A stretch of DNA of 13,459 nt from the IMG/VR virus record IMGVR_UViG_2579778974_000005; one strand, 5' to 3'. The translations under genes were made by a program, and so were the position numbers. Source of the DNA: a virus. Taxonomy: Duplodnaviria > Heunggongvirae > Uroviricota > Caudoviricetes. Within the stretch, counting starts at the first letter, position 1, and every line of letters begins with the position of its first letter. This document shows, piece after piece, positions 1-13,459 of this stretch. The notes beneath the pieces were generated by a model. The model was given only the letters and a program-made list of their open reading frames with translations. It did not search any database and was not told where the DNA came from.

Positions 1-279
1 ATGGCTGCGCTTGGGCAGTCAATCGGTGGTATATTCCCTTCTGATGAAATAGTCAAAGGCTCTATTAGCGGATATGTCTTCGAGCAATTTGAAATCGCCT
101 GTTACACCTCACTCTTAGCAGCAGCAAAAAATGCCGGTGATACAGCTTCAATTCCAACCATCGAAGCGATTTTAAATGAGGAAAAGCAAATGGCCGACTG
201 GCTGATTCAGCATATTCCGCAAACAACTGAGAAATTTTTAATTCGCTCTGAAACTGATGGCGTAGAAGCGAAGAAATAA
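1..279 (+). CDS. yciE: 3' end (92 codons) of a ferritin-like DUF892 family protein (YciE/YciF-type); the 5' end lies outside the window
   Basis: Open frame running from the window edge to TAA at 277..279. The translation (..FEQFEIACYTSLLAAAKNAGD..ILNEEKQMADWL..) has the C-terminal pattern of DUF892 proteins such as E. coli YciF. Assignment to yciE rather than a paralogue is recollection, not verified. Followed by a hairpin plus T-run. Confidence 0.6.
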   Translation: MAALGQSIGGIFPSDEIVKGSISGYVFEQFEIACYTSLLAAAKNAGDTASIPTIEAILNEEKQMADWLIQHIPQTTEKFLIRSETDGVEAKK

Positions 280-303
280 TACCCTTTATACCATGTCCTT
301 ATT

Positions 304-330
304 GACCCCGTATATTACGGGGTCGTTTTT
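304..330 (+). terminator. Rho-independent terminator of the yciE-like gene
   Basis: Inverted repeat GACCCCG (304..310) / CGGGGTC (318..324) with a 7-nt loop, followed directly by GTTTTT (325..330), 25 nt after the stop codon. Confidence 0.6.
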
Positions 331-767
331 GTGCGGAATTAAAAACGATATCCTGCTGAGAACATAAACACCCACGGATCGAGGCGTACGCTATCGTGTT
401 GCTGTGCACCGCCCAGTTTATAATTGGCGGTGGTATCGATATCCATGTACCACACTGGTAGGTTTCAAAAAACACAATAACCAATTGTATTTGAAGCAAA
501 AAACAAGACTTTGAGATGTTTTGTTGTACCTTTTTTTTATGTTTTTAACTGTCTGATTTTATTGAAATCTTTTTTAGTTTTGCAGAAGGAATTTTTTACT
601 TGATTGTAACTTTTTCGTTTTTTTGGGGCTAATTGACGCGCAATGCTGGGCGGGGAGCGCACAGCCAAAAAAACCGAAATTGACCGCTAATTACTGCCAA
701 TCATCATCGCTCTGATTGAGCGTAAATCATTCAGGTTATTCAGTTCTTCCTTCTGCTCTCGCTGACG

Positions 768-938
768 TCAATAAATCCCATCATTGCGATCAACCTCATC
801 CTTAACCATTGATGCGAGCAGTTCTTCCAGTTTCTGCGCTGACAGCTTTACCTGGTGATCTTCAGCATCTTCCCGGGCTATTGTGGTTCGCGCAGTGGCT
901 GATTTTGCTGACATCACCACAGGGGGCAGACGGACCAT
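768..938 (-). CDS. Hypothetical small protein (56 aa from the internal ATG at 936..938); doubtful
   Basis: Minus-strand ORF 768..1049 in the track. Its first 37 codons lie in the tfa-derived repeat and hairpin, so only the part from the ATG at 936..938 (GGAGG about 10 nt upstream) or 912..914 is plausible. No recognisable family. Confidence 0.2.
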   Translation of the reverse strand: MVRLPPVVMSAKSATARTTIAREDAEDHQVKLSAQKLEELLASMVKDEVDRNDGIY

Positions 939-1002
939 TGAACCATGGCCTCCGGAACAAATAAGGGCAAAAATAACAACCACTATCGAAAGCTCACAAA
1001 CT

Positions 1003-1172
1003 AACCGCAGCACGTTCCTGTATACGACGTGTCTGCGGCATAATCCCAATGATTACTCCCTGACAGGATTTGCAGGCCACTCAATATCAGGTGCAGTTGA
1101 TGTATCAACACGATTCAACAATACCCGATATTTATTCCATGCCTCCAGCAACGATCTTTCTTCCTCCGTTGC
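1003..1172. repeat. Left copy of a ~170-bp diverged direct repeat (tfa 3' end plus downstream hairpin)
   Basis: Aligns by eye with 2053..2221 in the same orientation, with scattered mismatches and a 1-nt length difference; roughly 85-90% identity, not computed. Confidence 0.8.
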
Positions 1173-1322
1173 GATTTCCAGATCTACAGCATCCTGCAGT
1201 GGCGCAATATACTCACTGAATTCCTGGATGTAGAACTGTGTGGTGACGGTCTTCCAGCCATTCGGCTCCTGCTGTATCGAAGCATACCAGGCTATTTCAA
1301 TATCGCTATGCTGCGGCAGCAT
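1053..1322 (-). CDS. tfa: Tail fibre assembly protein-like (Tfa C-terminal domain; short 89-aa form with a different N-terminus)
   Basis: C-terminus ..[51 protein letters not shown] matches the conserved C-terminal segment of lambda-type Tfa as I recall it. ATG at 1320..1322 preceded by AAGGGG. The N-terminal ~35 aa are unrelated to lambda Tfa. Confidence 0.65.
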
Positions 1323-1349
1323 TTAACCCCTTGTAATTCATCGCCATAA

Positions 1350-1378
1350 TTGATTTAATTCACAAATAAAACTATAAC
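1350..1378 (+). promoter_or_regulatory. Candidate sigma70 promoter upstream of the methyltransferase gene
   Basis: TTGATT (1350..1355), 17-nt spacer, TATAAC (1373..1378), ending immediately before the first ATG at 1379. Pattern match only. Confidence 0.3.
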
Positions 1379-2047
1379 ATGGTGAAATTAATGAAAAAAA
1401 ACACAGATGATGGGGCTAAAATTTACACACCACTTACCCTAAAGCTTTATGACTGGTGGGTTTTGGGAGTATCAAATTGGCTTGCATGGGGATGTCCTAC
1501 AAAGGAACACCTTCTTCCACACTTTCTGGAACATTTAGGTAACAACCATCTGGATATTGGTGTTGGAACTGGGTTTTACCTTACTCACGTACCTGAGAGT
1601 AGTCTGATATCTTTAATGGATTTGAACGAAGCTAGCCTGAACGCGGCATCTACAAGGGCTGGGGAATCAAAAATTAAACATAAAATTAGCCATGATGTTT
1701 TTGAACCTTATCCCGCGGCGTTACATGGTCAATTTGATTCCATTTCCATGTTTTACCTTCTTCACTGCCTGCCTGGAAATATAACTACAAAAAGCTGTGT
1801 AATACGCAATGCGGCGCAGGCCTTAACTGACGATGGAACTCTATACGGAGCCACAATTCTTGGCGATGGAGTTGTGCACAATAGCTTCGGTCAAAAACTG
1901 ATGCGCATTTACAATCAGAAAGGCATCTTTTCAAACACAAAAGATTCCGAAGAAGGCTTAACACATATACTCTCAGAGCATTTCGAGAATGTTAAAACCA
2001 AGGTTCAAGGTACTGTAGTAATGTTTTCCGCTTCAGGGAAAAAATAG
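1379..2047 (+). CDS. Class I SAM-dependent methyltransferase (222 aa; possible alternative start at ATG 1391)
   Basis: Complete ORF with the glycine-rich SAM-binding motif I DIGVGTGFY, preceded by a YDWW segment as in small Rossmann-fold methyltransferases. Visibly more AT-rich than the flanking tail genes. Opposite orientation to the flanking tfa fragments; I recall the same arrangement in E. coli K-12 prophage DLP12 (tfaD-ybcY-tfaX) but did not verify homology. Confidence 0.8.
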   Translation: MVKLMKKNTDDGAKIYTPLTLKLYDWWVLGVSNWLAWGCPTKEHLLPHFLEHLGNNHLDIGVGTGFYLTHVPESSLISLMDLNEASLNAASTRAGESKIKHKISHDVFEPYPAALHGQFDSISMFYLLHCLPGNITTKSCVIRNAAQALTDDGTLYGATILGDGVVHNSFGQKLMRIYNQKGIFSNTKDSEEGLTHILSEHFENVKTKVQGTVVMFSASGKK

Positions 2048-2052
2048 CATCC

Positions 2053-2221
2053 AACCGCAGCACGTTCTTGCTTAAGACGTGCTGCGGCATAATCCCAATG
2101 ATTACTCCCTGACAGAGTTCGTAGGCCACTCAATATCAGGTGCAGTTGATGTATCAACACGGTTCAGCAACACCCGATACTTTTTCCAGGCTTCCAGCAA
2201 CGAGTTTTCTTCCTCCGTTGC
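2053..2221. repeat. Right copy of the ~170-bp diverged direct repeat (tfa 3' end plus downstream hairpin)
   Basis: Partner of 1003..1172. Confidence 0.8.
2055..2087. terminator. Perfect 11-bp stem hairpin at the convergence of the methyltransferase gene and the tfa remnant; possible bidirectional terminator
   Basis: CCGCAGCACGT (2055..2065), 11-nt loop, ACGTGCTGCGG (2077..2087). No strong U-tract on either strand. An imperfect copy sits at 1005..1038. Confidence 0.35.
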
Positions 2222-2230
2222 ATATACAGC
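2102..2230 (-). pseudogene. tfa 3' remnant (last ~42 codons of a tail fibre assembly gene, no ATG)
   Basis: Minus-strand stop-to-stop frame translates to [42 protein letters not shown], bounded upstream by an in-frame TGA at 2231..2233. Absent from the ORF track because it is too short. Confidence 0.5.
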
Positions 2231-2240
2231 TCACCTTTTT

Positions 2241-2534
2241 TCACCCACGATTAACCAACAGCCAGACCAGCAGACACGCCACCACCGGCACAGCAAAATC
2301 CATCAGGCTTGCCACATCCCATGCACGTGTATCAAAACCGCCCCACCACGGCATATTCATTCGCTTGCCATGCCCGAACATTTCGATCCAGCGATATTCT
2401 GCCTGGGTGTGTTCACGCGCAATGAAGAACGTACAACCGGCTATCGCCCCGTAAGCCCAGTTCCCGGTAAAAAGACCAATCAGTAGCTGCGCAGCCACAG
2501 CACAAAGCGCATGAAGGAAAGGTGTTATATCCAT
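2241..2534 (-). CDS. Small membrane protein (97 aa, two predicted hydrophobic helices), function unknown
   Basis: ATG at 2532..2534 with AGGAGG 5 nt upstream, 10 nt after the stop of the preceding gene. Hydrophobic stretches FLHALCAVAAQLLIGLF..AIAGCTFFIA and LMDFAVPVVACLLVWLLV. Confidence 0.6.
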   Translation of the reverse strand: MDITPFLHALCAVAAQLLIGLFTGNWAYGAIAGCTFFIAREHTQAEYRWIEMFGHGKRMNMPWWGGFDTRAWDVASLMDFAVPVVACLLVWLLVNRG

Positions 2535-2544
2535 TACTCCTCCT

Positions 2545-3249
2545 TTATCCGATATCGCTTCGGGAAACGGATAACAACTTTAATTCTGACTCAAGTTCAT
2601 CAACTCTTTCAGTCAGCTTCTGGATATGGTGAATCAGTGGAACAACCAGACGTTCGTACATTACACCTTCGGCAACAAGGCCATTGCTGGAAATAGCTTC
2701 AGGAGCATCATCTTCGTTAGCTGGTCGCCAGTGTACAAACTGAGGGGCAATTTCTCCTACTTCCTCGGCAATCAATCCGTAGAATCCCCAGTCACGCCTG
2801 TCATTTTCGCATTGCGACCTGTACCACACAGGGCGCATCCTGAAAATGAGATCGGCGTGCTCTGAATCTATCGTCTCTACTGAATGTTTATAGCGAATAG
2901 ACGATGTTGACCGCAGTACAGACGAAATTGCAGGGTCAGGATTAAGATAAAGGTTTGCCGCCGCTGTAGTCGTGCCCAATCCCCACATATAAAACGCTTC
3001 ACGGCCAGTCAACGGGTAAAAATCTCCACCATAACGACCGCTTTCCAGATCGTTCACTTCCAGTTTGTTTTTCAGCTTATTATCAACTTCAGTTTTTGTG
3101 TATCTGGTGCTGATATCCTGCTTTGCACTGGTCATATCAGTCTGAAGCGTTGATACTTTTCCGTTAATTGAGGAAATATCTTCCTTAGTTTTACTGACAT
3201 CTCCCTTTAGCGTGGTGATATCTCCTGGAATTACTGTCGATGTAGCCAT
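2545..3249 (-). CDS. Short fibre-like protein: N-terminal coiled-coil plus C-terminal intramolecular chaperone (peptidase S74-type) domain (234 aa)
   Basis: ATG at 3247..3249 with GAGGGAG upstream. C-terminal region SSIRYKHSVETID..LIFRMRPVWY..WGFYGLIAEEVGEIAPQFV..GLVAEGVMYERLVVPLIHHIQKLTERVDELESELK fits the pattern of the tail fibre / endosialidase intramolecular chaperone domain as I recall it. Confidence 0.65.
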   Translation of the reverse strand: MATSTVIPGDITTLKGDVSKTKEDISSINGKVSTLQTDMTSAKQDISTRYTKTEVDNKLKNKLEVNDLESGRYGGDFYPLTGREAFYMWGLGTTTAAANLYLNPDPAISSVLRSTSSIRYKHSVETIDSEHADLIFRMRPVWYRSQCENDRRDWGFYGLIAEEVGEIAPQFVHWRPANEDDAPEAISSNGLVAEGVMYERLVVPLIHHIQKLTERVDELESELKLLSVSRSDIG

Positions 3250-3258
3250 TTGTCTCCC

Positions 3259-3540
3259 TCACATCCAGCCACGAAGTTGATGCTCAACAACAACCGCGTA
3301 TTTATCGAATATTGACGATTTTTTTACATCATTAATGATGCGCACGTTTACAAAATATCCGTCTTCCTTAACACATACCGGTTCGCCATCTTCAGTCAGT
3401 TCTCCGGTTTCTTTGTACACGTTACCTATCACGTCAATAAGAATATCATCCTGCATCGACTCGTCATCATAATAGCCAATACTCTCCATAAAGGCCGAAA
3501 AGTCGGCCCTGTCTGCAAATTTGAGTGTTAAATCTTTCAT
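3259..3540 (-). CDS. Small acidic hypothetical protein (93 aa); possible fibre chaperone or accessory factor
   Basis: ATG at 3538..3540 overlaps the stf stop (ATGA overlap), with a GGGGAGAG SD inside the stf 3' end. No recognisable family. Confidence 0.55.
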   Translation of the reverse strand: MKDLTLKFADRADFSAFMESIGYYDDESMQDDILIDVIGNVYKETGELTEDGEPVCVKEDGYFVNVRIINDVKKSSIFDKYAVVVEHQLRGWM

Positions 3541-5882
3541 TTAATACTCTCCCCCATTTGCGCATCAGTTAATTCTTTATGCCAGATACGCAGATTACGG
3601 ATATGACCAAAAAGATGATACTCCCCATTAGTGCCCTGCCCTCCAATTCGCAATACTGCCCGTGGAACAATTGAAGTCCATGTTGTTTTTGCCGCAACAG
3701 ATAATTCACCATTACATACGGCCTGAACATCTCCATCAGCGCCACAACGGAAGCCTGAAATGATTTTCCTCTGGGTTGTTGCCACATATTTATTACACCC
3801 TCCCATAGAAATAAAAGGAGAACCGGCATCAGAGAAATTATTACCACGGAATCCATGCGTGAACAGACCATTTTCCTGATAATCTTTAACATTAAAGATT
3901 AATGGTGATTTGCTGGGAGGGATATCCCAGTTTTTATTAACTTCAACAAGAGCACTGAATGGTAATCGGTGAATATTGTTTCTTACAGGTATTGTCACCA
4001 TGTCGCTGGAGCGAGTGCCAGGAGCCCCTTCAGTAATGATAAATGACGTCCTGTACGACCCAATCTCCGCCTGAGGCATCGCAATATCTAACGTAGAGCC
4101 ATTGGGGATAATACTGATTCCAGGCATCGCCAGGATTTCAAATCTTGAGCTGATTATCATTTCCGCATCTGCAAAAAGAGTGGCGGTAAACAACCACCAT
4201 TCACCGACTCTTTCTGCCGTCACCGTCACATTATTTCCATGAACAACATTTCCCGTAACAGGATCCAGAACTGCATCTGAATGAAAAACAAACGCACCAT
4301 TATCAGACATTTTTCCGAACCTTGCACGACACCGGGAATTATCACTTTTCGTCAGACACGATATCGTCGTATAAGAACCTGCCGGGCAGGTGTAAGCATC
4401 ATTCGTGTTTACAGCAATTGCCTGATATCCTTGTGCTGTCGGATTTTCATTAATAACAGTTATCCTTCCATAGTTAAACCCCTTATCACTGTCGAACGAC
4501 TCAACAGACACACTACCCGTGTTATTCCATGCTTCTGGTGTATTTGAATTTCTGAAATAGTTTGTTCTCTGTCCTTCAATCAGCAAACCTTCTCGTTCAA
4601 ATCGCGGTTCGTCAACTTCAGCAACGGTTAATACACCTGATTTATTAATGTATGTTGCACCTGATGCGCGTTTGAAGCTAACAACCTTATCGGATGGCAT
4701 TTTAATAACATCATCACCTACGGTTATTTGCTTATAACCAGGCGAAAAGCCAGCAAGCATATCCAGTGAATCGTTAAACGGTATCCACACATCAGGCAGT
4801 GGCTGTAAGACATATTTATACGGCTCTGCTGCCTGGCTTGCATACTCTCTGGCTGCATCCTCACTTGCTTTAGCTGCTGTCTGGCTTGCTGCCGATGCTT
4901 GCGCCGAGTTCGCCGCTGCAGTCTCGCTTGTCTTTGCATTGGTTTCACTGGTTTTTGCAGCTTTTTGACTGTTTGCTGATGCAGTGGCAGAAGCAGCCGC
5001 CGCACTTGCAGAACCAGCTGCAGCACTCTCGCTTTCGGCTGCTGCATCCTGACTGCTTTTCGCCGCAGTTTCGCTGGCTTTGGCATTTGTTTCGCTGGTC
5101 TTCGCTGCCGTCTGGCTGGACTTTGCGTTAGTTTCGCTCGTCTTCGCTGCTTTCTGGCTGTTAGCCGCAGCAGTTGCTGATCCAGCTGCTGCAGTCGCAG
5201 AACCGGCTGCCGCGCTCTCGCTTTCGGCTGCTGCATTCTGGCTATTTTTCGCCGCAGTTTCACTGGCTTTGGCATTCGTTTCGCTGGTTTTCGCTGCCGT
5301 CTGGCTGGACTTTGCGTTGGTTTCGCTCGTCTTTGCGGCTGTCTCGCTGTTTTTCGCGTTGGTTTCTGATTTTTTGGCTGCTGTCGCGGAGTTTGCCGAT
5401 GCAGTCTGCGAGGACGCTGCCGCCTGTGCGCTGTTAGCTGCATTCGTTTCTGAGGTTTTCGCCGCGTTCTTCGATGATGCCGCTGCAGTTTCGGATTTCT
5501 TTGCCGCCGCTGCGCTCTGAGAGGCGGCTTCGGCGTTGCGTGCCGCTTCTTCCACCATTGCCTCAAAACGACGCAATGCCTCCGGCATGACATCATCTTC
5601 CGTCATGGCACCGAGAAAATCATTCAGCGTACCTGGTCTGGAACCTTCATAGACGGTAATGGTTCCGGCATGTGAAGGCGGAAAACCTTCAACCAGCAGG
5701 GTGACGCTGTACTGGCCATGCTCAACATCCATGCTGTAACGCCCGGCTTCATCCGGATTTTCAGAGGCCACCGTGTTCACCAGTACCGTGGTGCTGTTAC
5801 GCTTTGCCTTCAGTTGAATAGTGCAGTTCTGTATTGGTTTTCCCGCACCATCTTTCAGCACACCTGAAATCTGTACTGCCAT
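3537..5882 (-). CDS. stf: Side tail fibre protein (Stf-like; 781 aa from the ATG at 5880..5882)
   Basis: N-terminus MAVQISGVLKDGAGKPIQNCTIQLKA..GRYSMDVE..FPPSHAGTITVYE matches the lambda Stf N-terminal domain from memory. It is followed by a long Ala/Ser/Thr-rich repetitive shaft and a distinct C-terminal region ending in a LamG/concanavalin-like motif (..RIGGQGTNGEYHLFGHIRNLRIWHKELTDAQM). GGAG SD before the ATG; the track's upstream GTG start is less likely. Confidence 0.85.
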   Translation of the reverse strand: MAVQISGVLKDGAGKPIQNCTIQLKAKRNSTTVLVNTVASENPDEAGRYSMDVEHGQYSVTLLVEGFPPSHAGTITVYEGSRPGTLNDFLGAMTEDDVMPEALRRFEAMVEEAARNAEAASQSAAAAKKSETAAASSKNAAKTSETNAANSAQAAASSQTASANSATAAKKSETNAKNSETAAKTSETNAKSSQTAAKTSETNAKASETAAKNSQNAAAESESAAAGSATAAAGSATAAANSQKAAKTSETNAKSSQTAAKTSETNAKASETAAKSSQDAAAESESAAAGSASAAAASATASANSQKAAKTSETNAKTSETAAANSAQASAASQTAAKASEDAAREYASQAAEPYKYVLQPLPDVWIPFNDSLDMLAGFSPGYKQITVGDDVIKMPSDKVVSFKRASGATYINKSGVLTVAEVDEPRFEREGLLIEGQRTNYFRNSNTPEAWNNTGSVSVESFDSDKGFNYGRITVINENPTAQGYQAIAVNTNDAYTCPAGSYTTISCLTKSDNSRCRARFGKMSDNGAFVFHSDAVLDPVTGNVVHGNNVTVTAERVGEWWLFTATLFADAEMIISSRFEILAMPGISIIPNGSTLDIAMPQAEIGSYRTSFIITEGAPGTRSSDMVTIPVRNNIHRLPFSALVEVNKNWDIPPSKSPLIFNVKDYQENGLFTHGFRGNNFSDAGSPFISMGGCNKYVATTQRKIISGFRCGADGDVQAVCNGELSVAAKTTWTSIVPRAVLRIGGQGTNGEYHLFGHIRNLRIWHKELTDAQMGESIK
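4850..5430. repeat. Tandem coding repeats (~189-bp unit, about 2.5-3 copies) in the stf shaft
   Basis: Near-identical blocks starting near 5041 and 5230, with a related copy near 4860-5040. Protein repeat ..KAAKTSETNAKSSQTAAKTSETNAKASETAAK.S..AAAESESAAAGSA.. seen twice. Confidence 0.8.
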
Positions 5883-5893
5883 ATTCACTCCAC

Positions 5894-5921
5894 AAATAAA
5901 AAAGGCGCCATTTCTGGCGCC
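5894..5921 (-). terminator. Rho-independent terminator downstream of J, immediately upstream of the stf ribosome-binding site
   Basis: On the minus strand: GGCGCCA-GAAA-TGGCGCC stem-loop (plus 5904..5921) followed by TTTTTTATTT (plus 5894..5903), about 20 nt after the J stop. Confidence 0.6.
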
Positions 5922-5940
5922 CGTATCTGGGTTATAAAAT

Positions 5941-8900
5941 TCAGCTAATCATGATGCCTGCAGTGGCTTTCTTCATCACCACAACCAGCAAATCGCTGAT
6001 ACTTGCTGTGGGATACCAGCCATTTACCAGCCATGCCGATACAGAAAATTCCAGTGTCATTACACCACTGCCTGCAGGCATATCAATAACACCCGTATAT
6101 ATCAGCGTATTATCCAGAGCCGTTCGGTTATAAATTTCAGCACCGTTTTTTCGTACTATCAGACGGCATGAGGAGTAGATATCAGTATGATCTTGCTCAT
6201 GTTTAGCGCCACTGAATGCCACCGCCGGAATAACAATTTGCCGGTCAAACGGCTGATCGTCATAAACCCTGACGGTAATGGTCCCTGATGGCCACCGCTC
6301 CGGTGCACGGGAGTCCCGGGGGAAAGCTTTGCCCACTGTTTTAACGAGATCGCCTTCAATCTGGTTCGCGGACAGTTTTCCCAGAACCCGGCAGTTCTCG
6401 TTAATCGTGACGTTGTTGAGCGTCCCGGAGTTCGCATTCACGTTACCGCTAATATCGGCATTTTTCGCCGTCAGCCGCCCGTCCGGTGTCAGGGAAAATG
6501 CCGGAGGATTACCGCCGCTGGTAATGGTGGGAGCCGTCAGATATTTCAGGAACACTTCGTTCATGAATATCTGATCGCCCTGACCAACAAACATCGGCTT
6601 TGTGTTGCCATTCGCAGGATTAATCATCGCAATCCTGTCCGCCGCCAGCAGCACCTGACTCTGCATACCGTCAGGGGTATTCTCAATACCGGCACCAATA
6701 CCCGCGATATAAAGGCGTCCGTCCTGCATCTGCTGCAGCTTCACAGCCCACATGCTGTTCAGGTTATTATTTGTATCAACCTGAACCTTCTGTATCTGCT
6801 GGATTGCCGCACTCTGGTCTTCCAGTTTCTTATTGACGGTCTGCGTGATTTCATTACTGACATCCGTGATGGACGTTCTGATTTCCGCCAGGTCAGGCGC
6901 AAGCTGACCGTTATCAATCTGCGTCCACAACTCCTGAGCCAGATGGGTTTTCCCTATCTCTCCTTTGAAAAAATTCAGATAGCCGGATGCATCATCACTC
7001 GGCTGGCCAACAGCCTCCACGAATGCCGATTTGCCAACGGTGTTCACACTGCGGATGTAAAAATAATAATCATGGCCCGGTTTGATATTGATACTGGCGG
7101 CTATCCAGTACAGCGCCGTGCCAAGATAGCGTGCTGTGGTTTCAACCTGCCTGATATCCGCAATCCGCTTTTCCGAGAACCAGAACTCAAACTGTACCGT
7201 CGGATCATAAACCGCAAGATGCGGCGTGGCGGTTATCTGAAAATACCCCGGTGTCAGCTCAATCTGCGACGGCGCTGCCGGTGCGGCAATCCGGAACGAT
7301 ACCGACGCCGGCTCGCCCTGCTGCCCCCACGCATTTACTGCCCGGACTGTCAGCCTGTAGTTCCCCAGAGCCAGTTGTGTGAAGCGGTAAGTGGTTTCCG
7401 TCGTCCGGGCCGTGCTGACCAGTCGCTCACGGCCGTCATCCGCTGCCACGGTCAGGCGAAGCAGGAAGCTCACGCCCTTCACCACCTTCGGCGTGTCCCA
7501 GCGGGCCAGCACCTGGTATTCCCCGCTGTCTGCGGTGACTTCTGCGGTCAGGTGCTGCACCGCTGGCGGCGTGACACCATTTACCGTGCCGCTCTGGTCG
7601 CCGTCAAAGTGCGCCCCGTTATCCACGATGGCCTCTTTTTCCGGTACATGCTGCACGGCGGTGATGGCATACGTGCCGTCGTCGTTCTCACGGATACTCA
7701 CGCAGCGGAACAGGCGCTGGCGCAACGTCGGCAGCTTCAGCCCCCATACGCTGTATTCAGCAACGCCGTCAGGAACACGGCTCACTTTCACCTTCACGCC
7801 GTCGGTGACGGACTGAACCTCCACGCTGACCGGACTCCCCTGCCCGTCAACCAGGCTTATCAGCGTGGTGCCGGAAGATGGCAGCGTGATTTCACGGTCG
7901 AGCGTCAGCGTCCGGGTCTGGCTGTTTACCGCCAGCACGCGCCCGCCGGTGCGGATACCGGCATAGTCATCATCGCAGATTTCAATGACATCGCCCGGTA
8001 CATGGCGAAGCCCTTCGGCACCCACGCTGAAGTCCACGGTCTGCGTTTCCAGCAGCTCCGTTTTAATCAGCCACAGCCCGGCGCGGTGTGCCTGCCCCCG
8101 GCTGGTACAGCCAAAGGCATCCATCTTCGTGACGTTACGACCGTAACGGAGAATGGCCTGCGTATCTTCAACAAGCTCTGTCGCCGTCTCCCAGCCGTTG
8201 TCCGGGTCAATCCAGTTCACCTCAACGGCATTATGGCGGTCCTTCAGGGCGCTGAAGCTGTAGCGGAACGGCGCGCCATCATCCGGCATCACCACATTAC
8301 TGCGGTTATAGGTCCACACCTTATCTGATGGTCGGTCCTGCACGAACGTCAGCGTCTGCCCGTTCCATACCGGCATACAGCGCATCGCCGAGCAGAAATC
8401 ACTGAGCACATCCCACGCCTTACGCTGCGTGGTCAGGTAGGCATTACAGGTGATGCGCGGCTCCGTGCCGCCAAAACCGTCCGGCACTGACTGGTCGCAG
8501 TACTGGCCGATGACATACAGCGCCCATTTATCCACATCCGCCGCACCAAGACGTTTCCCCATGCCGTAGCGCGGGTGGGTCAGCATATCCCACAGACACC
8601 AGGCCGGGTTGTTGCTGTATGCCGGCTTAAACGTTCCGTCCCAGATACCGCTGTATTGCCGCGTCTGCGGGTTATAGTTCGACGGCACCTGCAGAATGCG
8701 CCCGCGAAGATGATAATTACGGCTCACCTGCTGGCTGCCGAACTGCTCCGAGTCCACCTGCACGCCGACCAGTGCCGTGTTCGGGTAGCACTGTTTCACA
8801 TCGATGATTTCGGTGTATGACGACCAGAGCGTTTTGTTCTGCAGCTGGTCTGTGGTGCTGTCCGGCGTCATCCTGCGCATCCGGATGTTGAACGGGCGCG

Positions 8901-9420
8901 GCGGCAGGTTATCCACCACCACCGAGGCCAGATACTGCGAGGTGGTTTTGCCTTTAATGGTGATGTCTTTTTCCGTCACCCAGCCACCGTTACGCTGTAT
9001 CTGAACCAGCAGGCGGACTTCCGACGGATTCCGGTCCCCCTTTGAGGTGGTTTCCACCAGTGCCTGCACACCGAAGGTCAAGCGCAGACGGTCGATGTTT
9101 GCAGACGTGATGGTCCGGGTAATCGGCGTGTCGTACTTCACTTCCGTACCCAGCACCGTCTCGGAGCCGGAGGATTCAAATCCCTCCGGCGGTGTCTGCT
9201 CCTGCTCACCTGCCCGGAACACCACCGTGACGCCGGAGATATTGGTATTCCCCTCACTGTCCAGCACTGGCGTACTGTTCAGCAGCACGCTTTTTAATCC
9301 ATCCACCGGACCTTCAATCGGCCCTTCGCTGATGGCATCAATCACACTCAGCAACTGCGTGGACTTCAGGTTGTCCTTCGCTTCGCGCGGGGTATGCCCC
9401 TTACTGCTGCCTTTACCCAT
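5941..9420 (-). CDS. J: Tail tip host-specificity protein J (central tail fibre), 1159 aa, with a C-terminal region that differs from lambda J
   Basis: N-terminal ~790 aa ([24 protein letters not shown]..) match lambda J as recalled. The C-terminal ~350 aa differ from the lambda LamB-binding end as recalled. Confidence 0.95.
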
Positions 9421-9480
9421 TCCTCACGCTCCATAAACGACAAAACCGCCCGCAGGCGGTTTCACATAAAACATTTTGCA

Positions 9481-10152
9481 TCAGCGACCAATCACCACAA
9501 CCTGACCACCGTCCCCTTCGTCTGCCGTGCTGATCTCCTGAGAAACCACCCGTGACCCCACGCGCATTTCACCGTACAGAACGGGCAGAACATTGCTCTG
9601 GGCAACCATGTTATCCAGGGAGGAGAAATAGGTGTTCTGTTTGCCGTTATCCGTTGTCTGTGTACGGGGAGTTCTGGCTTTCGGTGCCAGCATCTGCGCC
9701 ACACCACCGAGCACCATACTGGCACCGAGAGAAAACAGGATGCCGGTCATACCACCGGCCCCAATGGCTGCCCCCCATGCTGCAAGGGTGGCTCCGGCGG
9801 TAAAGAATGATCCGGCAATGGCGGCAGCCCCCAGGACAATCTGGAATACGCCCCCTGACTTGGCCCCGGCGACTCTGGGAACAATATGAATCACAGCGCC
9901 ATCAGGCAGAGTCTCATGTAACTGCGCCGTTAACCCGGACGTGCTGACGTCCCGCCCGGCAATCCGTACCTGATACCAGCCGTCGCTCAGTTTCTGACGA
10001 AACGCCGGGAGCTGTGTGGCCAGTGCCCGGATGGCTTCAGCCCCCGTTTTCACACGAAGGTCGATGCGGCGACCAAATCGTTGTAAATCCCCGTAAAGGC
10101 AGATGCGCGCCATGCCCGGTGACGCCAGAGGGAGTGTGTGCGTCGCTGCCAT
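9481..10152 (-). CDS. I: Tail tip assembly protein I (223 aa)
   Basis: Translation MAATHTLPLASPGMARICLYGDLQRFGRRIDLRV.. matches lambda gpI from memory. Overlaps the 3' end of K by ~100 nt, as in lambda. Confidence 0.95.
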   Translation of the reverse strand: MAATHTLPLASPGMARICLYGDLQRFGRRIDLRVKTGAEAIRALATQLPAFRQKLSDGWYQVRIAGRDVSTSGLTAQLHETLPDGAVIHIVPRVAGAKSGGVFQIVLGAAAIAGSFFTAGATLAAWGAAIGAGGMTGILFSLGASMVLGGVAQMLAPKARTPRTQTTDNGKQNTYFSSLDNMVAQSNVLPVLYGEMRVGSRVVSQEISTADEGDGGQVVVIGR

Positions 10153-10793
10153 TTGTCGGTGTACCTCTCTCGTTTGCTCAGTTGTTCAGGAATATGGTGC
10201 AGCAGCTCGCCGTCGCCGCAGTAAATTGCGGCGTGATTCGGCACCGATGAACCAAAACAGCACAGCAGCACATCGCCCGGCTGTGCCGCTGACAACGGCA
10301 CCTGATACAGCCCCGTCGCCTCCAGATTATCCAGATAGAGATTCTGGCAGTTACGCCACCAGTCATCCTCACGATGAAAGTCCGGCATCTCAATCCCCGC
10401 CAGATGATAAGCATCCCGGAACAGCGTGTAACAGTCCGTCACCCCGTGCTCAAAGCACCGCCCGGTAAGATGCGGCACACAGCGGAACTTGTGAATCGCC
10501 CCCCGGCAGACCAGCCACCACGGCAAATCACTCTGCACCTGCAGCCGCCGGTCGGTCTCACTCAGCCAGGGCAGACCACCGGGGTGGCTGTGGACCAGCG
10601 CCACAATCTCACCCTGCATTTCTGCCTGCAGCCAGTCTTCCGGCGACATACGGAAATAATCCTCCGGCTCACCGGAGATATTCACGCCGGGGAAATATCT
10701 TTCCCCCTCCGGCGCTCTCACCACGAAGCCGCACGACTCCGCTGGCGCACATCGCCGGGCGTGCGCCAGAATCGCTGATTCTGTCTCTGTCAT
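10050..10793 (-). CDS. K: Tail tip assembly protein K (JAB/MPN metalloprotease-like plus NlpC/P60 domains), 247 aa from the ATG at 10791..10793
   Basis: JAMM-like motif HSHPGG..SETD and an NlpC/P60-like Cys/His pair (..VTDCYTLF.., ..NHAAIY..). The ATG at 10791..10793 lies 4 nt after the L stop. The classical 199-aa lambda annotation would start at the ATG at 10647..10649; the track's longer ORF (to 10835) overlaps L. Confidence 0.9.
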   Translation of the reverse strand: MTETESAILAHARRCAPAESCGFVVRAPEGERYFPGVNISGEPEDYFRMSPEDWLQAEMQGEIVALVHSHPGGLPWLSETDRRLQVQSDLPWWLVCRGAIHKFRCVPHLTGRCFEHGVTDCYTLFRDAYHLAGIEMPDFHREDDWWRNCQNLYLDNLEATGLYQVPLSAAQPGDVLLCCFGSSVPNHAAIYCGDGELLHHIPEQLSKRERYTDKWQRRTHSLWRHRAWRASAFTGIYNDLVAASTFV

Positions 10794-10797
10794 GGGA

Positions 10798-11496
10798 TTA
10801 CTGCGAAAGTTTGTTAATGGAAAGGAAGCCGCCAAAATTGCCGACGTTATTGCGAAACTTACAGCCGCTCAGGCATTTGCTGCATTTATCCTTCGTGATA
10901 TCGGACGTCGGCTGGTCATATTCATCCGCGACTGCCGGACCGTGATAACCGCACTCATCACCGCGATAGGTCCAGGTGCAGGTGTTGGCCAGCATGATAC
11001 GCCCCGGAAAAACAGCGCCGTCCGTTTCCGTCGGCGTGGACAGTACAAAAGAGGCACTGACCGCGCTCAGTTCGCTGCACTGCTCGATGCGCCAGCGGCT
11101 GATCACCTCCTGCTCCGGATCGGCGTCACTGTTTCCGTTGACGAAGTTCACCGCATCCAGAAAACGGGCGTAAACCTTACGCCGGACCACCGTTCCGCCG
11201 ACCAGACTCTGCAGATCTTCCGCCATCCCGGTGACCATACCGTACAGGTTAGAAACCGTCAGCGTGGGGCGCGTACTGGTGCCTTTGCCATTCAGTTCAA
11301 AACCACTCCCCTGAATGGGATACGGCTGATACTGTCGCCCCTGCCAGGTGACCGGCTCACCTTTTTCGTTCTGCTCATTACAGAAAAAATAACGTTCTCC
11401 ACCGACCTCTGTCAGATCGATTTCCCAGAGCACCACGCTGGCCGACTGCTCCGCACGGGTGCATTCATTCAGTGTTTCCTGCCGGATATCCTGCAT
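10798..11496 (-). CDS. L: Minor tail protein L (232 aa)
   Basis: MQDIRQETLNECTRAEQSASVVLWEIDL.. matches lambda gpL from memory. ATGA start/stop overlap with M. Confidence 0.95.
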   Translation of the reverse strand: MQDIRQETLNECTRAEQSASVVLWEIDLTEVGGERYFFCNEQNEKGEPVTWQGRQYQPYPIQGSGFELNGKGTSTRPTLTVSNLYGMVTGMAEDLQSLVGGTVVRRKVYARFLDAVNFVNGNSDADPEQEVISRWRIEQCSELSAVSASFVLSTPTETDGAVFPGRIMLANTCTWTYRGDECGYHGPAVADEYDQPTSDITKDKCSKCLSGCKFRNNVGNFGGFLSINKLSQ

Positions 11497-11825
11497 CAGT
11501 TCACCACCTGTTTAAACTCTGCGCTGAACTCAACACGCAACATACTGACCTGCGACGACCATTTTGCGCAGGTCACCTTTATCTGCCTGTAGCCATAAGG
11601 CGGCGTCCACAGAAAGGCCTTCCAGCCCCCGTGCTCAGCCAGAAACGACTCCAGCGCCGTGGCCTCCTCACGGGAGACAGACAGCGTCACGCTGTACGTT
11701 TTCAGGTCAGCGTTCAGCCCGGCAGGCGCACGCTGGGAATAGCCATCACCAAAGCGCACCTCCCTGACGGAAGGAGCCGATGTCACATCCATCCCGGGTT
11801 TCACTTTCCAGCGGAAGGTTTTCAT
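11496..11825 (-). CDS. M: Minor tail protein M (109 aa)
   Basis: MKTFRWKVKPGMDV..SQRAPAGLNA.LKTYSVTLSV matches lambda gpM from memory. ATGA overlap with the H stop. Confidence 0.95.
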   Translation of the reverse strand: MKTFRWKVKPGMDVTSAPSVREVRFGDGYSQRAPAGLNADLKTYSVTLSVSREEATALESFLAEHGGWKAFLWTPPYGYRQIKVTCAKWSSQVSMLRVEFSAEFKQVVN

Positions 11826-13372
11826 CGTCCACCTCCGGAGAACAGACCACCATCGCGCATCTGTGCCTGGATTTCATCACGGGCACCCTTGCGGGCCATG
11901 TCATACACTGCCTTCAGAGCAGCCGGACCTATCTGCCCGTTCGTGCCGTCGTTGTTAATCACCACATGGTTATTCTGCTCAAACGTCCCGGACGCCTGCG
12001 ACCGGCTGTCTGCCATGCTGCCCGGTGTACCGACATAACCGCCGGTGGCATAGCCGCGCATCAGCCGGTAAAGATTCCCCACGCCAATCCGGCTGGTTGC
12101 CTCCTTTGTGAAGACAAATTCACCACGGTGAACAATCCCCGCTGGCTCATATTTGCCGCCGGTTCCCGTAAATCCTCCGGTTGCAAAATGGAATTTCGCC
12201 GCAGCGGCCTGAATGGCTGTACCGCCTGACGCGGATGCGCCGCCACCAACAGCCCCGCCAATGGCGCTGCCGATACTCCCGACAATCCCCACCATTGCCT
12301 GCTTAAGCAGAATTTCTGTCATCATGGACAGCACGGAACGGGTGAAGCTGCGCCAGTTCTGCTCACTGCCGGTCAGCATCGCCGCCATATTCTGCGCAAT
12401 ACCATCAAAGGTCTGCGCGGCTGCACTTTTAACCTGCGACATACTGTCCGTGGCGCTCTCTTCCCACTCACTCCAGCCGGACTTCAGGCCTGCCATCCAG
12501 CTCCCGCGAAGCTGGTCTTCAGCCGCCCAGGTCTTTTTCTGCTCTGACATGACGTTATTCAGCGCCAGAGGATTATCGCCATACTGTTCCTTCAGGCGCT
12601 GTTCTGTGGCTTCCCGCGCTGCCTGCCGGTCAGTCAGCCCCCGGCTTTTCGCATCAATGGCGGTCCGTTTTGCCCGTTGCTGCTGTGCGAATTTATCCGC
12701 CTGCTGCGCCAGCGCGTTCAGGCGCTCCTGATACGTAACCTTGTCGCCAAGTGCAGCCAGCTGGCGTTTATACTCCAGCGTCTCATCTTTATGCGCCAGC
12801 AGGGATTTCTCCTGTGCAGACAGCTGGCGACGTTGCGCCGCCTCCTCCAGTACCGCGAACTGACTCTCCGCCTTCCACAAATCCCGGCGCTGCTGGCTGA
12901 TTTTCTCATTTGCTCCGGCATGCTTCTCCAGCGTCCGGAGTTCAGCCTGAAGCGTCAGCAGGGCAGCATGAGCACTGTCTTCCTGACGATCGCCCGCAGA
13001 CACCTTCACGCCGGACTGTTTCGGCTTTTTCAGCGTCGCTTCATAGTCCTTTTTCGCCGCCGCCATCAGCGTGTTGTAATCTGCCTGCAGAATTTTCCCG
13101 TCCTTCAGTGCCTTGTTCAGTTCTTCCTGACGGGCGGTATATTTCTCCAGCGGCGTCTGCAGCCGTTCGTAAGCCTTCTGCGCCTCTTCGGTATATTTCA
13201 GCCGTGACGCTTCAGTATCGCTCTGCTGCTGCGCATTTGTGTCCTGTTGACTCTGCTGTTCAGCCTTCTTTCGGGCGGCTTCAAGCGCAAGACGGGCCTT
13301 TTCACGATCATCCCAGTAACGCGCCCGCGCTTCATCGTTAACAAAATAATCATCCTTGCGCAGACTCCAGAT
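11822..13372 (-). CDS. H: Tail tape measure protein H, C-terminal ~515 codons only; the 5' portion is missing and replaced at 13373 by a fragment of gene I
   Basis: From ..IWSLRKDDYFVNDEARARYWDDREKARLALEAARKKAEQQ.. to the C-terminal ..MRDGGLFSGGGR the translation matches lambda gpH as recalled. The residues upstream of IW in the track ORF are an out-of-frame reading of the duplicated gene I fragment. Confidence 0.85.
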   Translation of the reverse strand: MWSLRKDDYFVNDEARARYWDDREKARLALEAARKKAEQQSQQDTNAQQQSDTEASRLKYTEEAQKAYERLQTPLEKYTARQEELNKALKDGKILQADYNTLMAAAKKDYEATLKKPKQSGVKVSAGDRQEDSAHAALLTLQAELRTLEKHAGANEKISQQRRDLWKAESQFAVLEEAAQRRQLSAQEKSLLAHKDETLEYKRQLAALGDKVTYQERLNALAQQADKFAQQQRAKRTAIDAKSRGLTDRQAAREATEQRLKEQYGDNPLALNNVMSEQKKTWAAEDQLRGSWMAGLKSGWSEWEESATDSMSQVKSAAAQTFDGIAQNMAAMLTGSEQNWRSFTRSVLSMMTEILLKQAMVGIVGSIGSAIGGAVGGGASASGGTAIQAAAAKFHFATGGFTGTGGKYEPAGIVHRGEFVFTKEATSRIGVGNLYRLMRGYATGGYVGTPGSMADSRSQASGTFEQNNHVVINNDGTNGQIGPAALKAVYDMARKGARDEIQAQMRDGGLFSGGGR

Positions 13373-13459
13373 CCACCGAGCACCATACTGGCACCGAGAG
13401 AAAACAGGATGCCGGTCATACCACCGGCCCCAATGGCTGCCCCCCATGCTGCAAGGGTG
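13373..13459. repeat. Exact 87-bp direct copy of gene I internal sequence (9704..9790), abutting truncated H and running off the window edge
   Basis: 13373..13459 is identical base-for-base to 9704..9790 (offset 3669 bp); the flanking bases 13372 and 9703 differ. Confidence 0.9.

Follow-up and report, generated by a model that had tools for sequence, protein, structure and literature searches.

An exact copy of part of tail gene I fused to tape-measure gene H at a contig end of Escherichia coli BIDMC 43a: a probable mate-pair artefact

Analysis of the window, by which we mean the whole stretch of 13,459 nt under study, demonstrated that it corresponds to a single contig in the draft assembly of the Escherichia coli BIDMC 43a genome (GCA_000522105.1; BioSample SAMN02356581), located in scaffold KI929668.1 (4,517,625 bp). 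The tail genes H, M, L, K, I, and J are all encoded on the minus strand and follow the lambda order from high to low coordinates. The Pfam families listed for the source locus appear in the same lambda order, and the RefSeq names given in a near-identical relative agree with them. The genes and features that bear on the following analysis are listed below.

5941–9420, minus strand: gene J, tail tip attachment protein, intact, 1159 aa (gpJ domains)
9481–10053, minus strand: gene I, tail assembly protein, intact (PF06805)
9704–9790, minus strand: genuine copy of the repeated piece within tail assembly gene I, with the codons for ..TLAAWGAAIGAGGMTGILFSLGASMVLGG
10050–10793, minus strand: gene K, JAB/NlpC-P60 peptidase (PF14464/PF00877)
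10798–11496, minus strand: gene L, minor tail protein L (PF05100)
11496–11825, minus strand: gene M, minor tail protein (PF05939)
11822–13372, minus strand: 3′ part of gene H, tape measure, comprising the C-terminal 516 codons and the stop (PF09718)
13092–13372, minus strand: stretch of H in which both contigs overlap (281 nt, 2 mismatches), the neighbouring contig being intact at the breakpoint
13273–13274, no strand assigned: GG dinucleotide, where the neighbouring contig of this scaffold and all close relatives have TC
13373–13459, minus strand: chimeric contig tail, an exact copy of an internal piece of gene I; it runs up to a 100-N scaffold gap and most likely represents the far side of a circularisation joint from a mate-pair library

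Several further features were noted in the low-coordinate part of the window. Within its first 700 nt, the prophage end meets the 3′ terminus of yciE, which is a pseudogene in a relative, and a truncated remnant of ompW that lies next to the trp operon; the prophage thus appears to be located in or next to ompW. Two direct repeats of approximately 170 nt (1003–1172 and 2053–2221; ~89–91% identical) correspond to two annotated remnants of tail-fibre-assembly (tfa) genes. A plus-strand gene for a class I SAM-dependent methyltransferase (1379–2047) lies between both remnants and resembles a cargo gene that entered between duplicated tfa fragments. In addition, the 783-aa tail-fibre ORF at 3537–5888 contains a 189-nt tandem repeat (4914–5291) with two copies of 81% identity and a shifted copy of 60% identity, presumably a repeated fibre-shaft domain.

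Related loci were fetched with gene J as the query. Several genomes were found to carry the same prophage at the same site (yciE, truncated ompW, and the trp operon), each with an intact H of 853 aa. The closest relative is strain BIDMC3 (GCA_000522285.1; locus at KI929760.1, 1,210,222–1,233,701), which, as BIDMC 43a, is of ST-648 and carries blaKPC-2. The two strains come from one hospital and one study collection and were isolated in 2009 and 2012, respectively. This clonal relative encodes the intact 853-aa H and is identical to window positions 1–13372 save for 13273–13274, and the 3′ part of H in the window matches the intact H of the relatives with the same exception.

The homology to H ends abruptly at position 13372. 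The first codons of the H part, read on the minus strand, are ATC TGG AGT (I W S), which correspond to the site ..KKADD/IWSLRKDDYF.. of the intact protein; the alignment thus confirmed that H stops at its Ile-Trp codons, as the original prediction had stated. From 13373 to 13459, the window is 100% identical over 87 nt to 9704–9790, forming a direct repeat with a spacing of 3669. By our estimate, a chance match of 87 nt in 13.5 kb has an expected number of about 1e-44. The same-orientation, out-of-frame copy of gene I that had been described at this position was therefore borne out, and in the source record it extends to 88 nt (9704–9791). At the joint 13372/9704, a piece of tail gene I coding for ..TLAAWGAAIGAGGMTGILFSLGASMVLGG is fused in the same orientation to the interior of the tape-measure gene. 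The minus strand across the joint reads ...GGTGG/ATCTGGAGTCTGCGC, with the I piece followed by H from Ile-Trp. No microhomology (0 bp) was detected at the joint when the H side (..CCAGAT/GTCG) was compared with the I side (..CCACA/CCAC). Natural homology between H and I as the cause of a mis-joining was rejected, because the aligned genes have nothing in common at the breakpoint.

The reading frames across the joint were also examined. Although 3669 is divisible by 3, the frame of I differs from that of H. The I frame continues through the joint into a junk tail of 57 aa ending in ..KRHG and a stop. The H frame stays open through the I piece and contains an ATG that gives a 541-aa ORF (11822–13447). 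Read from the contig edge to the H stop (11822–13459), the chimera has 545 aa and has been deposited in GenBank and RefSeq as a "tape measure protein, partial" (ETX86003.1/WP_380061905.1). The first 29 residues of ETX86003.1 are gene I translated out of frame. This 545-aa product is recorded solely in GCA_000522105.1, scaffold KI929668.1, and the other truncated H proteins of the same 90% cluster have ordinary H N-termini.

The high-coordinate end of the window is the end of the contig and lies one base short of a 100-N scaffold gap inside gene H. Inspection of the sequence beyond 13459, which had been proposed as a check, revealed one more base of the I copy and then the run of 100 N (positions 9901–10000 of the retrieved source-locus sequence, L003). 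The neighbouring contig, on the far side of the gap, contains the 5′ part of H; its sequence (..KKADDIWSLRKDDYF..) runs uninterrupted past the breakpoint position (...AAAGCGGACGACATCTGGAGTCTGCGC...) and stops 281 nt further on. An intact H at this position had been named as the observation that would reveal an assembly artefact. Such an H is indeed present in the neighbouring contig, but alone it is not decisive, because a tandem duplication would likewise keep one intact H. Beyond one full copy of the 3669-bp unit, the source record holds just 88 nt and 281 nt of additional sequence.

The GG dinucleotide at 13273–13274 lies 99–100 nt from the joint, and its two bases are the sole differences from the relatives in 13,372 nt. 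It changes GCG AGA to GCC CGA, which is synonymous in both codons. The same state is found in other natural H alleles (Nissle 1917 type), and the dinucleotide therefore looks borrowed from another copy of H rather than produced by random error. The probable source of the GG is either another copy of H in the genome or the chimeric molecule itself. At the end of the neighbouring contig, the final base (L003 position 9900, equivalent to window position 13091) is also non-native and has the Nissle-type H state, which again points to a mixture of two H copies at both flanks of the gap. Two H-bearing places per genome are present in close relatives that carry this prophage, and a second lambdoid prophage is thus the probable cause of the broken assembly. 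From 13273 to its end (~188 nt), the contig is an unfaithful copy of this prophage, and this abnormal block has approximately the size of one 180-bp library fragment. A second H allele that differs only at 13091 and 13273–13274 (a 181-nt exact repeat) was considered and rejected, as the query crafted for it had a best match of 99.0% in the complete genomes. The exact sequence of window positions 13250–13372 was found in none of the 5426 complete E. coli genomes.

The joint was then searched for in other collections. With a joint-spanning query, no place covering at least 80% was found in any of 5426 complete E. coli genomes, and all matches in these genomes ended at 13372. The joint was also not found in 50,697 phage records, and a joint pattern of 30–38 nt had no matches in IMG/VR contigs, GTDB species genomes, or JGI metagenome contigs. 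A recurrent natural H/I fusion was therefore ruled out, given that the joint was found neither in the genomes nor in the phage records nor in the three contig collections. To extend the comparison to proteins, a fully assembled duplication was simulated, giving predicted I′ fusion proteins of 174, 194, and 207 aa and a 541-aa ′H starting at an ATG; none of these had a match in ~15 billion proteins and 153 billion gene positions.

Mate-pair libraries were used in the assembly of BIDMC43a (Salamzade et al., Table S2). The recipe cited by these authors combines 180-bp fragment pairs with jumping libraries of ~3 kb and a spread of 2–10 kb, and specifies 101-nt reads and unipaths with K = 96 (Ribeiro et al., 2012; PMC3483556). 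In the same account, gap patching by ALLPATHS-LG takes jumping reads "ignoring their pairing," and the description of this step states no support threshold. The Pilon paper describes the Broad standard recipe with long-insert libraries of 3–5 kb and a partial filling of gaps through "consensus extensions from each flank," for which its local assembler accepts only links with at least 5-fold support (PMC4237348). If Pilon made the extension, this threshold means that a single chimeric molecule would need PCR duplicates. Illumina mate-pair joints carry no linker, and reads that run through the junction therefore become unrecognisable chimeric reads (PMC3253782). For BIDMC 43a itself, we infer the insert range, the blunt-ligation protocol, and the use of ALLPATHS-LG and Pilon from the published recipes of the laboratory. 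An overlap of de Bruijn k-mers was also considered as the origin of the 87/88-nt length and was rejected, as it fits neither K = 96 (ALLPATHS-LG) nor K = 47 (Pilon).

It is very likely that the joint is an artefact of one kind or another, and probably it is a contig-end artefact of mate-pair circularisation rather than a structure of the genome. In such a library, DNA fragments of a few kb would be circularised by blunt self-ligation with no marker sequence, and a read across the ligation point would continue from the end of a fragment into its start, with the orientation unchanged. For a fragment of 3669 bp that spans 9704–13372, the expected order is accordingly ...13372/9704.... If one such read, or its PCR duplicates, was treated as plain sequence, it could have extended or patched the end of the contig into the gap, adding 88 nt, under the length of one 101-nt read. 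A junction-crossing read was presumably the actual source of the tail. The observed geometry fits a mate-pair joint on four counts, namely the orientation, the distance of 3669 bp, the 0-bp microhomology, and the 88-nt tail. The distance falls within both published insert ranges, ~3 kb (2–10 kb) and 3–5 kb, and the tail is shorter than the 101-nt read of the published recipe. The mate-pair mechanism alone does not explain the GG dinucleotide, which would need a second H allele in the genome. A further point counted against an artefact is the layout of the scaffold (H 5′ part, gap, I piece, H 3′ part, and M-L-K-I-J), which would also be expected of a real tandem duplication with its first copy unassembled.

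A genuine 3669-bp tandem duplication with the structure H-M-L-K-I′/′H-M-L-K-I-J, formed by illegitimate end-joining and present clonally or in a sizeable subpopulation, was considered unlikely. According to this explanation, the first copy collapsed in the assembly and left the gap; the upstream I would be truncated and carry the 57-aa junk tail, and the ATG at 13447 would be the only start available for expression of the downstream ′H. The end-to-start joint in the same orientation is what a duplication would produce, the order of the scaffold across the gap is compatible with it, and an assembly from short reads would be expected to break at a two-copy repeat of 3.7 kb. Short repeats are usually involved in RecA-independent duplications, whereas no repeat is present at these end points and the microhomology is 0 bp. 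Moreover, the supposed copies differ at 2 of 281 nt, whereas the window differs from its clonal relative at none of the other 13,370 nt. The overlaps of 281 and 88 nt are unlike the symmetric K-1 overlap of a graph repeat, and the recorded gap is 100 N and not ~3.3 kb. The joint and the predicted fusion proteins are absent from all other genomes and collections searched, relatives included, and the length of the unit coincides with the mate-pair insert range. The original prediction had left the choice between the joint of a tandem duplication and an artefact open. The geometry that it described held, while the position of the joint (88 nt from the end of a contig at a 100-N gap), the mate-pair libraries, the uniqueness of the joint, and the GG dinucleotide favour an artefact. 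On this evidence, its further suggestion of a duplicated and partly defective tail module, if the joint were real, is not supported.

An artefact of another kind, such as a chimeric insert in the short-fragment library, template switching during PCR, or a wrong gap-fill walk that mixed two lambdoid prophages, is quite improbable. Such an origin would agree with the last ~188 nt being abnormal as a block of about one 180-bp fragment, and the alleles are mixed at both contig ends, which points to the recruitment of reads from a second H copy. The Pilon paper also reports one wrong partial fill, which extended into a different repeat copy (PMC4237348). Against this, the two ends of a random chimera would fall 2–10 kb apart in the same orientation in about 1 of 1000 cases or less in a 5.4-Mb genome (our estimate), and a wrong walk from one paralogous prophage to another can switch only where the two have sequence in common, which H and I lack at this point. 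Because a random ligation chimera would rarely join sequences 2–10 kb away in the right orientation, mate-pair circularisation is by far the likeliest origin of an artefact.

It is highly improbable that the joint is real and lies in a second, rearranged lambdoid prophage into which the contig end wandered (such as a deletion between two neighbouring prophages that connected gene I of the first to gene H of the second): the GG before the joint differs from the allele of this prophage in any relative, relatives have two H-bearing places per genome, and the 87-nt I piece is too short to tell from which I gene it derives, but an H allele with GG and the other states of the window occurs in no complete genome, no complete genome contains an I/H joint, including close relatives with two H copies, and the match of the distance to a mate-pair insert, measured in this prophage, would have to be a coincidence.

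If the joint were real, a KPC-producing ST-648 bloodstream isolate would carry a 3.67-kb I′-K-L-M-′H duplication in a lambdoid prophage, and a blunt illegitimate joining would have occurred within approximately three years of divergence from its clonal relative. The products would be a truncated I with a junk tail and possibly an N-terminally truncated tape-measure ORF that starts in I-derived sequence. The biological weight of the locus is small, as its relatives have an ordinary intact lambda-type tail module. As a probable circularisation artefact, the case shows how linker-free mate-pair joints can leave false joints of "tandem duplications" at the gap flanks of draft assemblies. Such false joints spread into databases, as with ETX86003.1/WP_380061905.1. 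Therefore, scans for rearrangements or gene fusions in drafts based on mate pairs should mask about one read length beside N-gaps.

The locus was finally compared with known systems. The order, sizes, and Pfam families of H-M-L-K-I-J are like those of the lambda tail module, with an H of 853 aa in the relatives. Nothing is unusual in this comparison: the module is intact in the relatives, and only the assembly of H is interrupted here. The joint resembles the novel joint of a bacterial tandem duplication in its end-to-start order and same orientation, for which the unit would be I′-K-L-M-′H. Unlike such a joint, it has no microhomology or flanking repeats, its second copy is unassembled, its overlap is non-identical, and it occurs at a contig end only. 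Compared with linker-free mate-pair junction reads patched into contigs (ALLPATHS-LG and Pilon), it differs in the dinucleotide variant 100 nt away, for which a second H allele or a molecule of paralogous origin must be assumed. In other respects it is like them, being an end-to-start, blunt, and unmarked joint over ~3.7 kb that lies at a gap flank, extends for less than one read, and occurs in an assembly for which mate-pair libraries were used.
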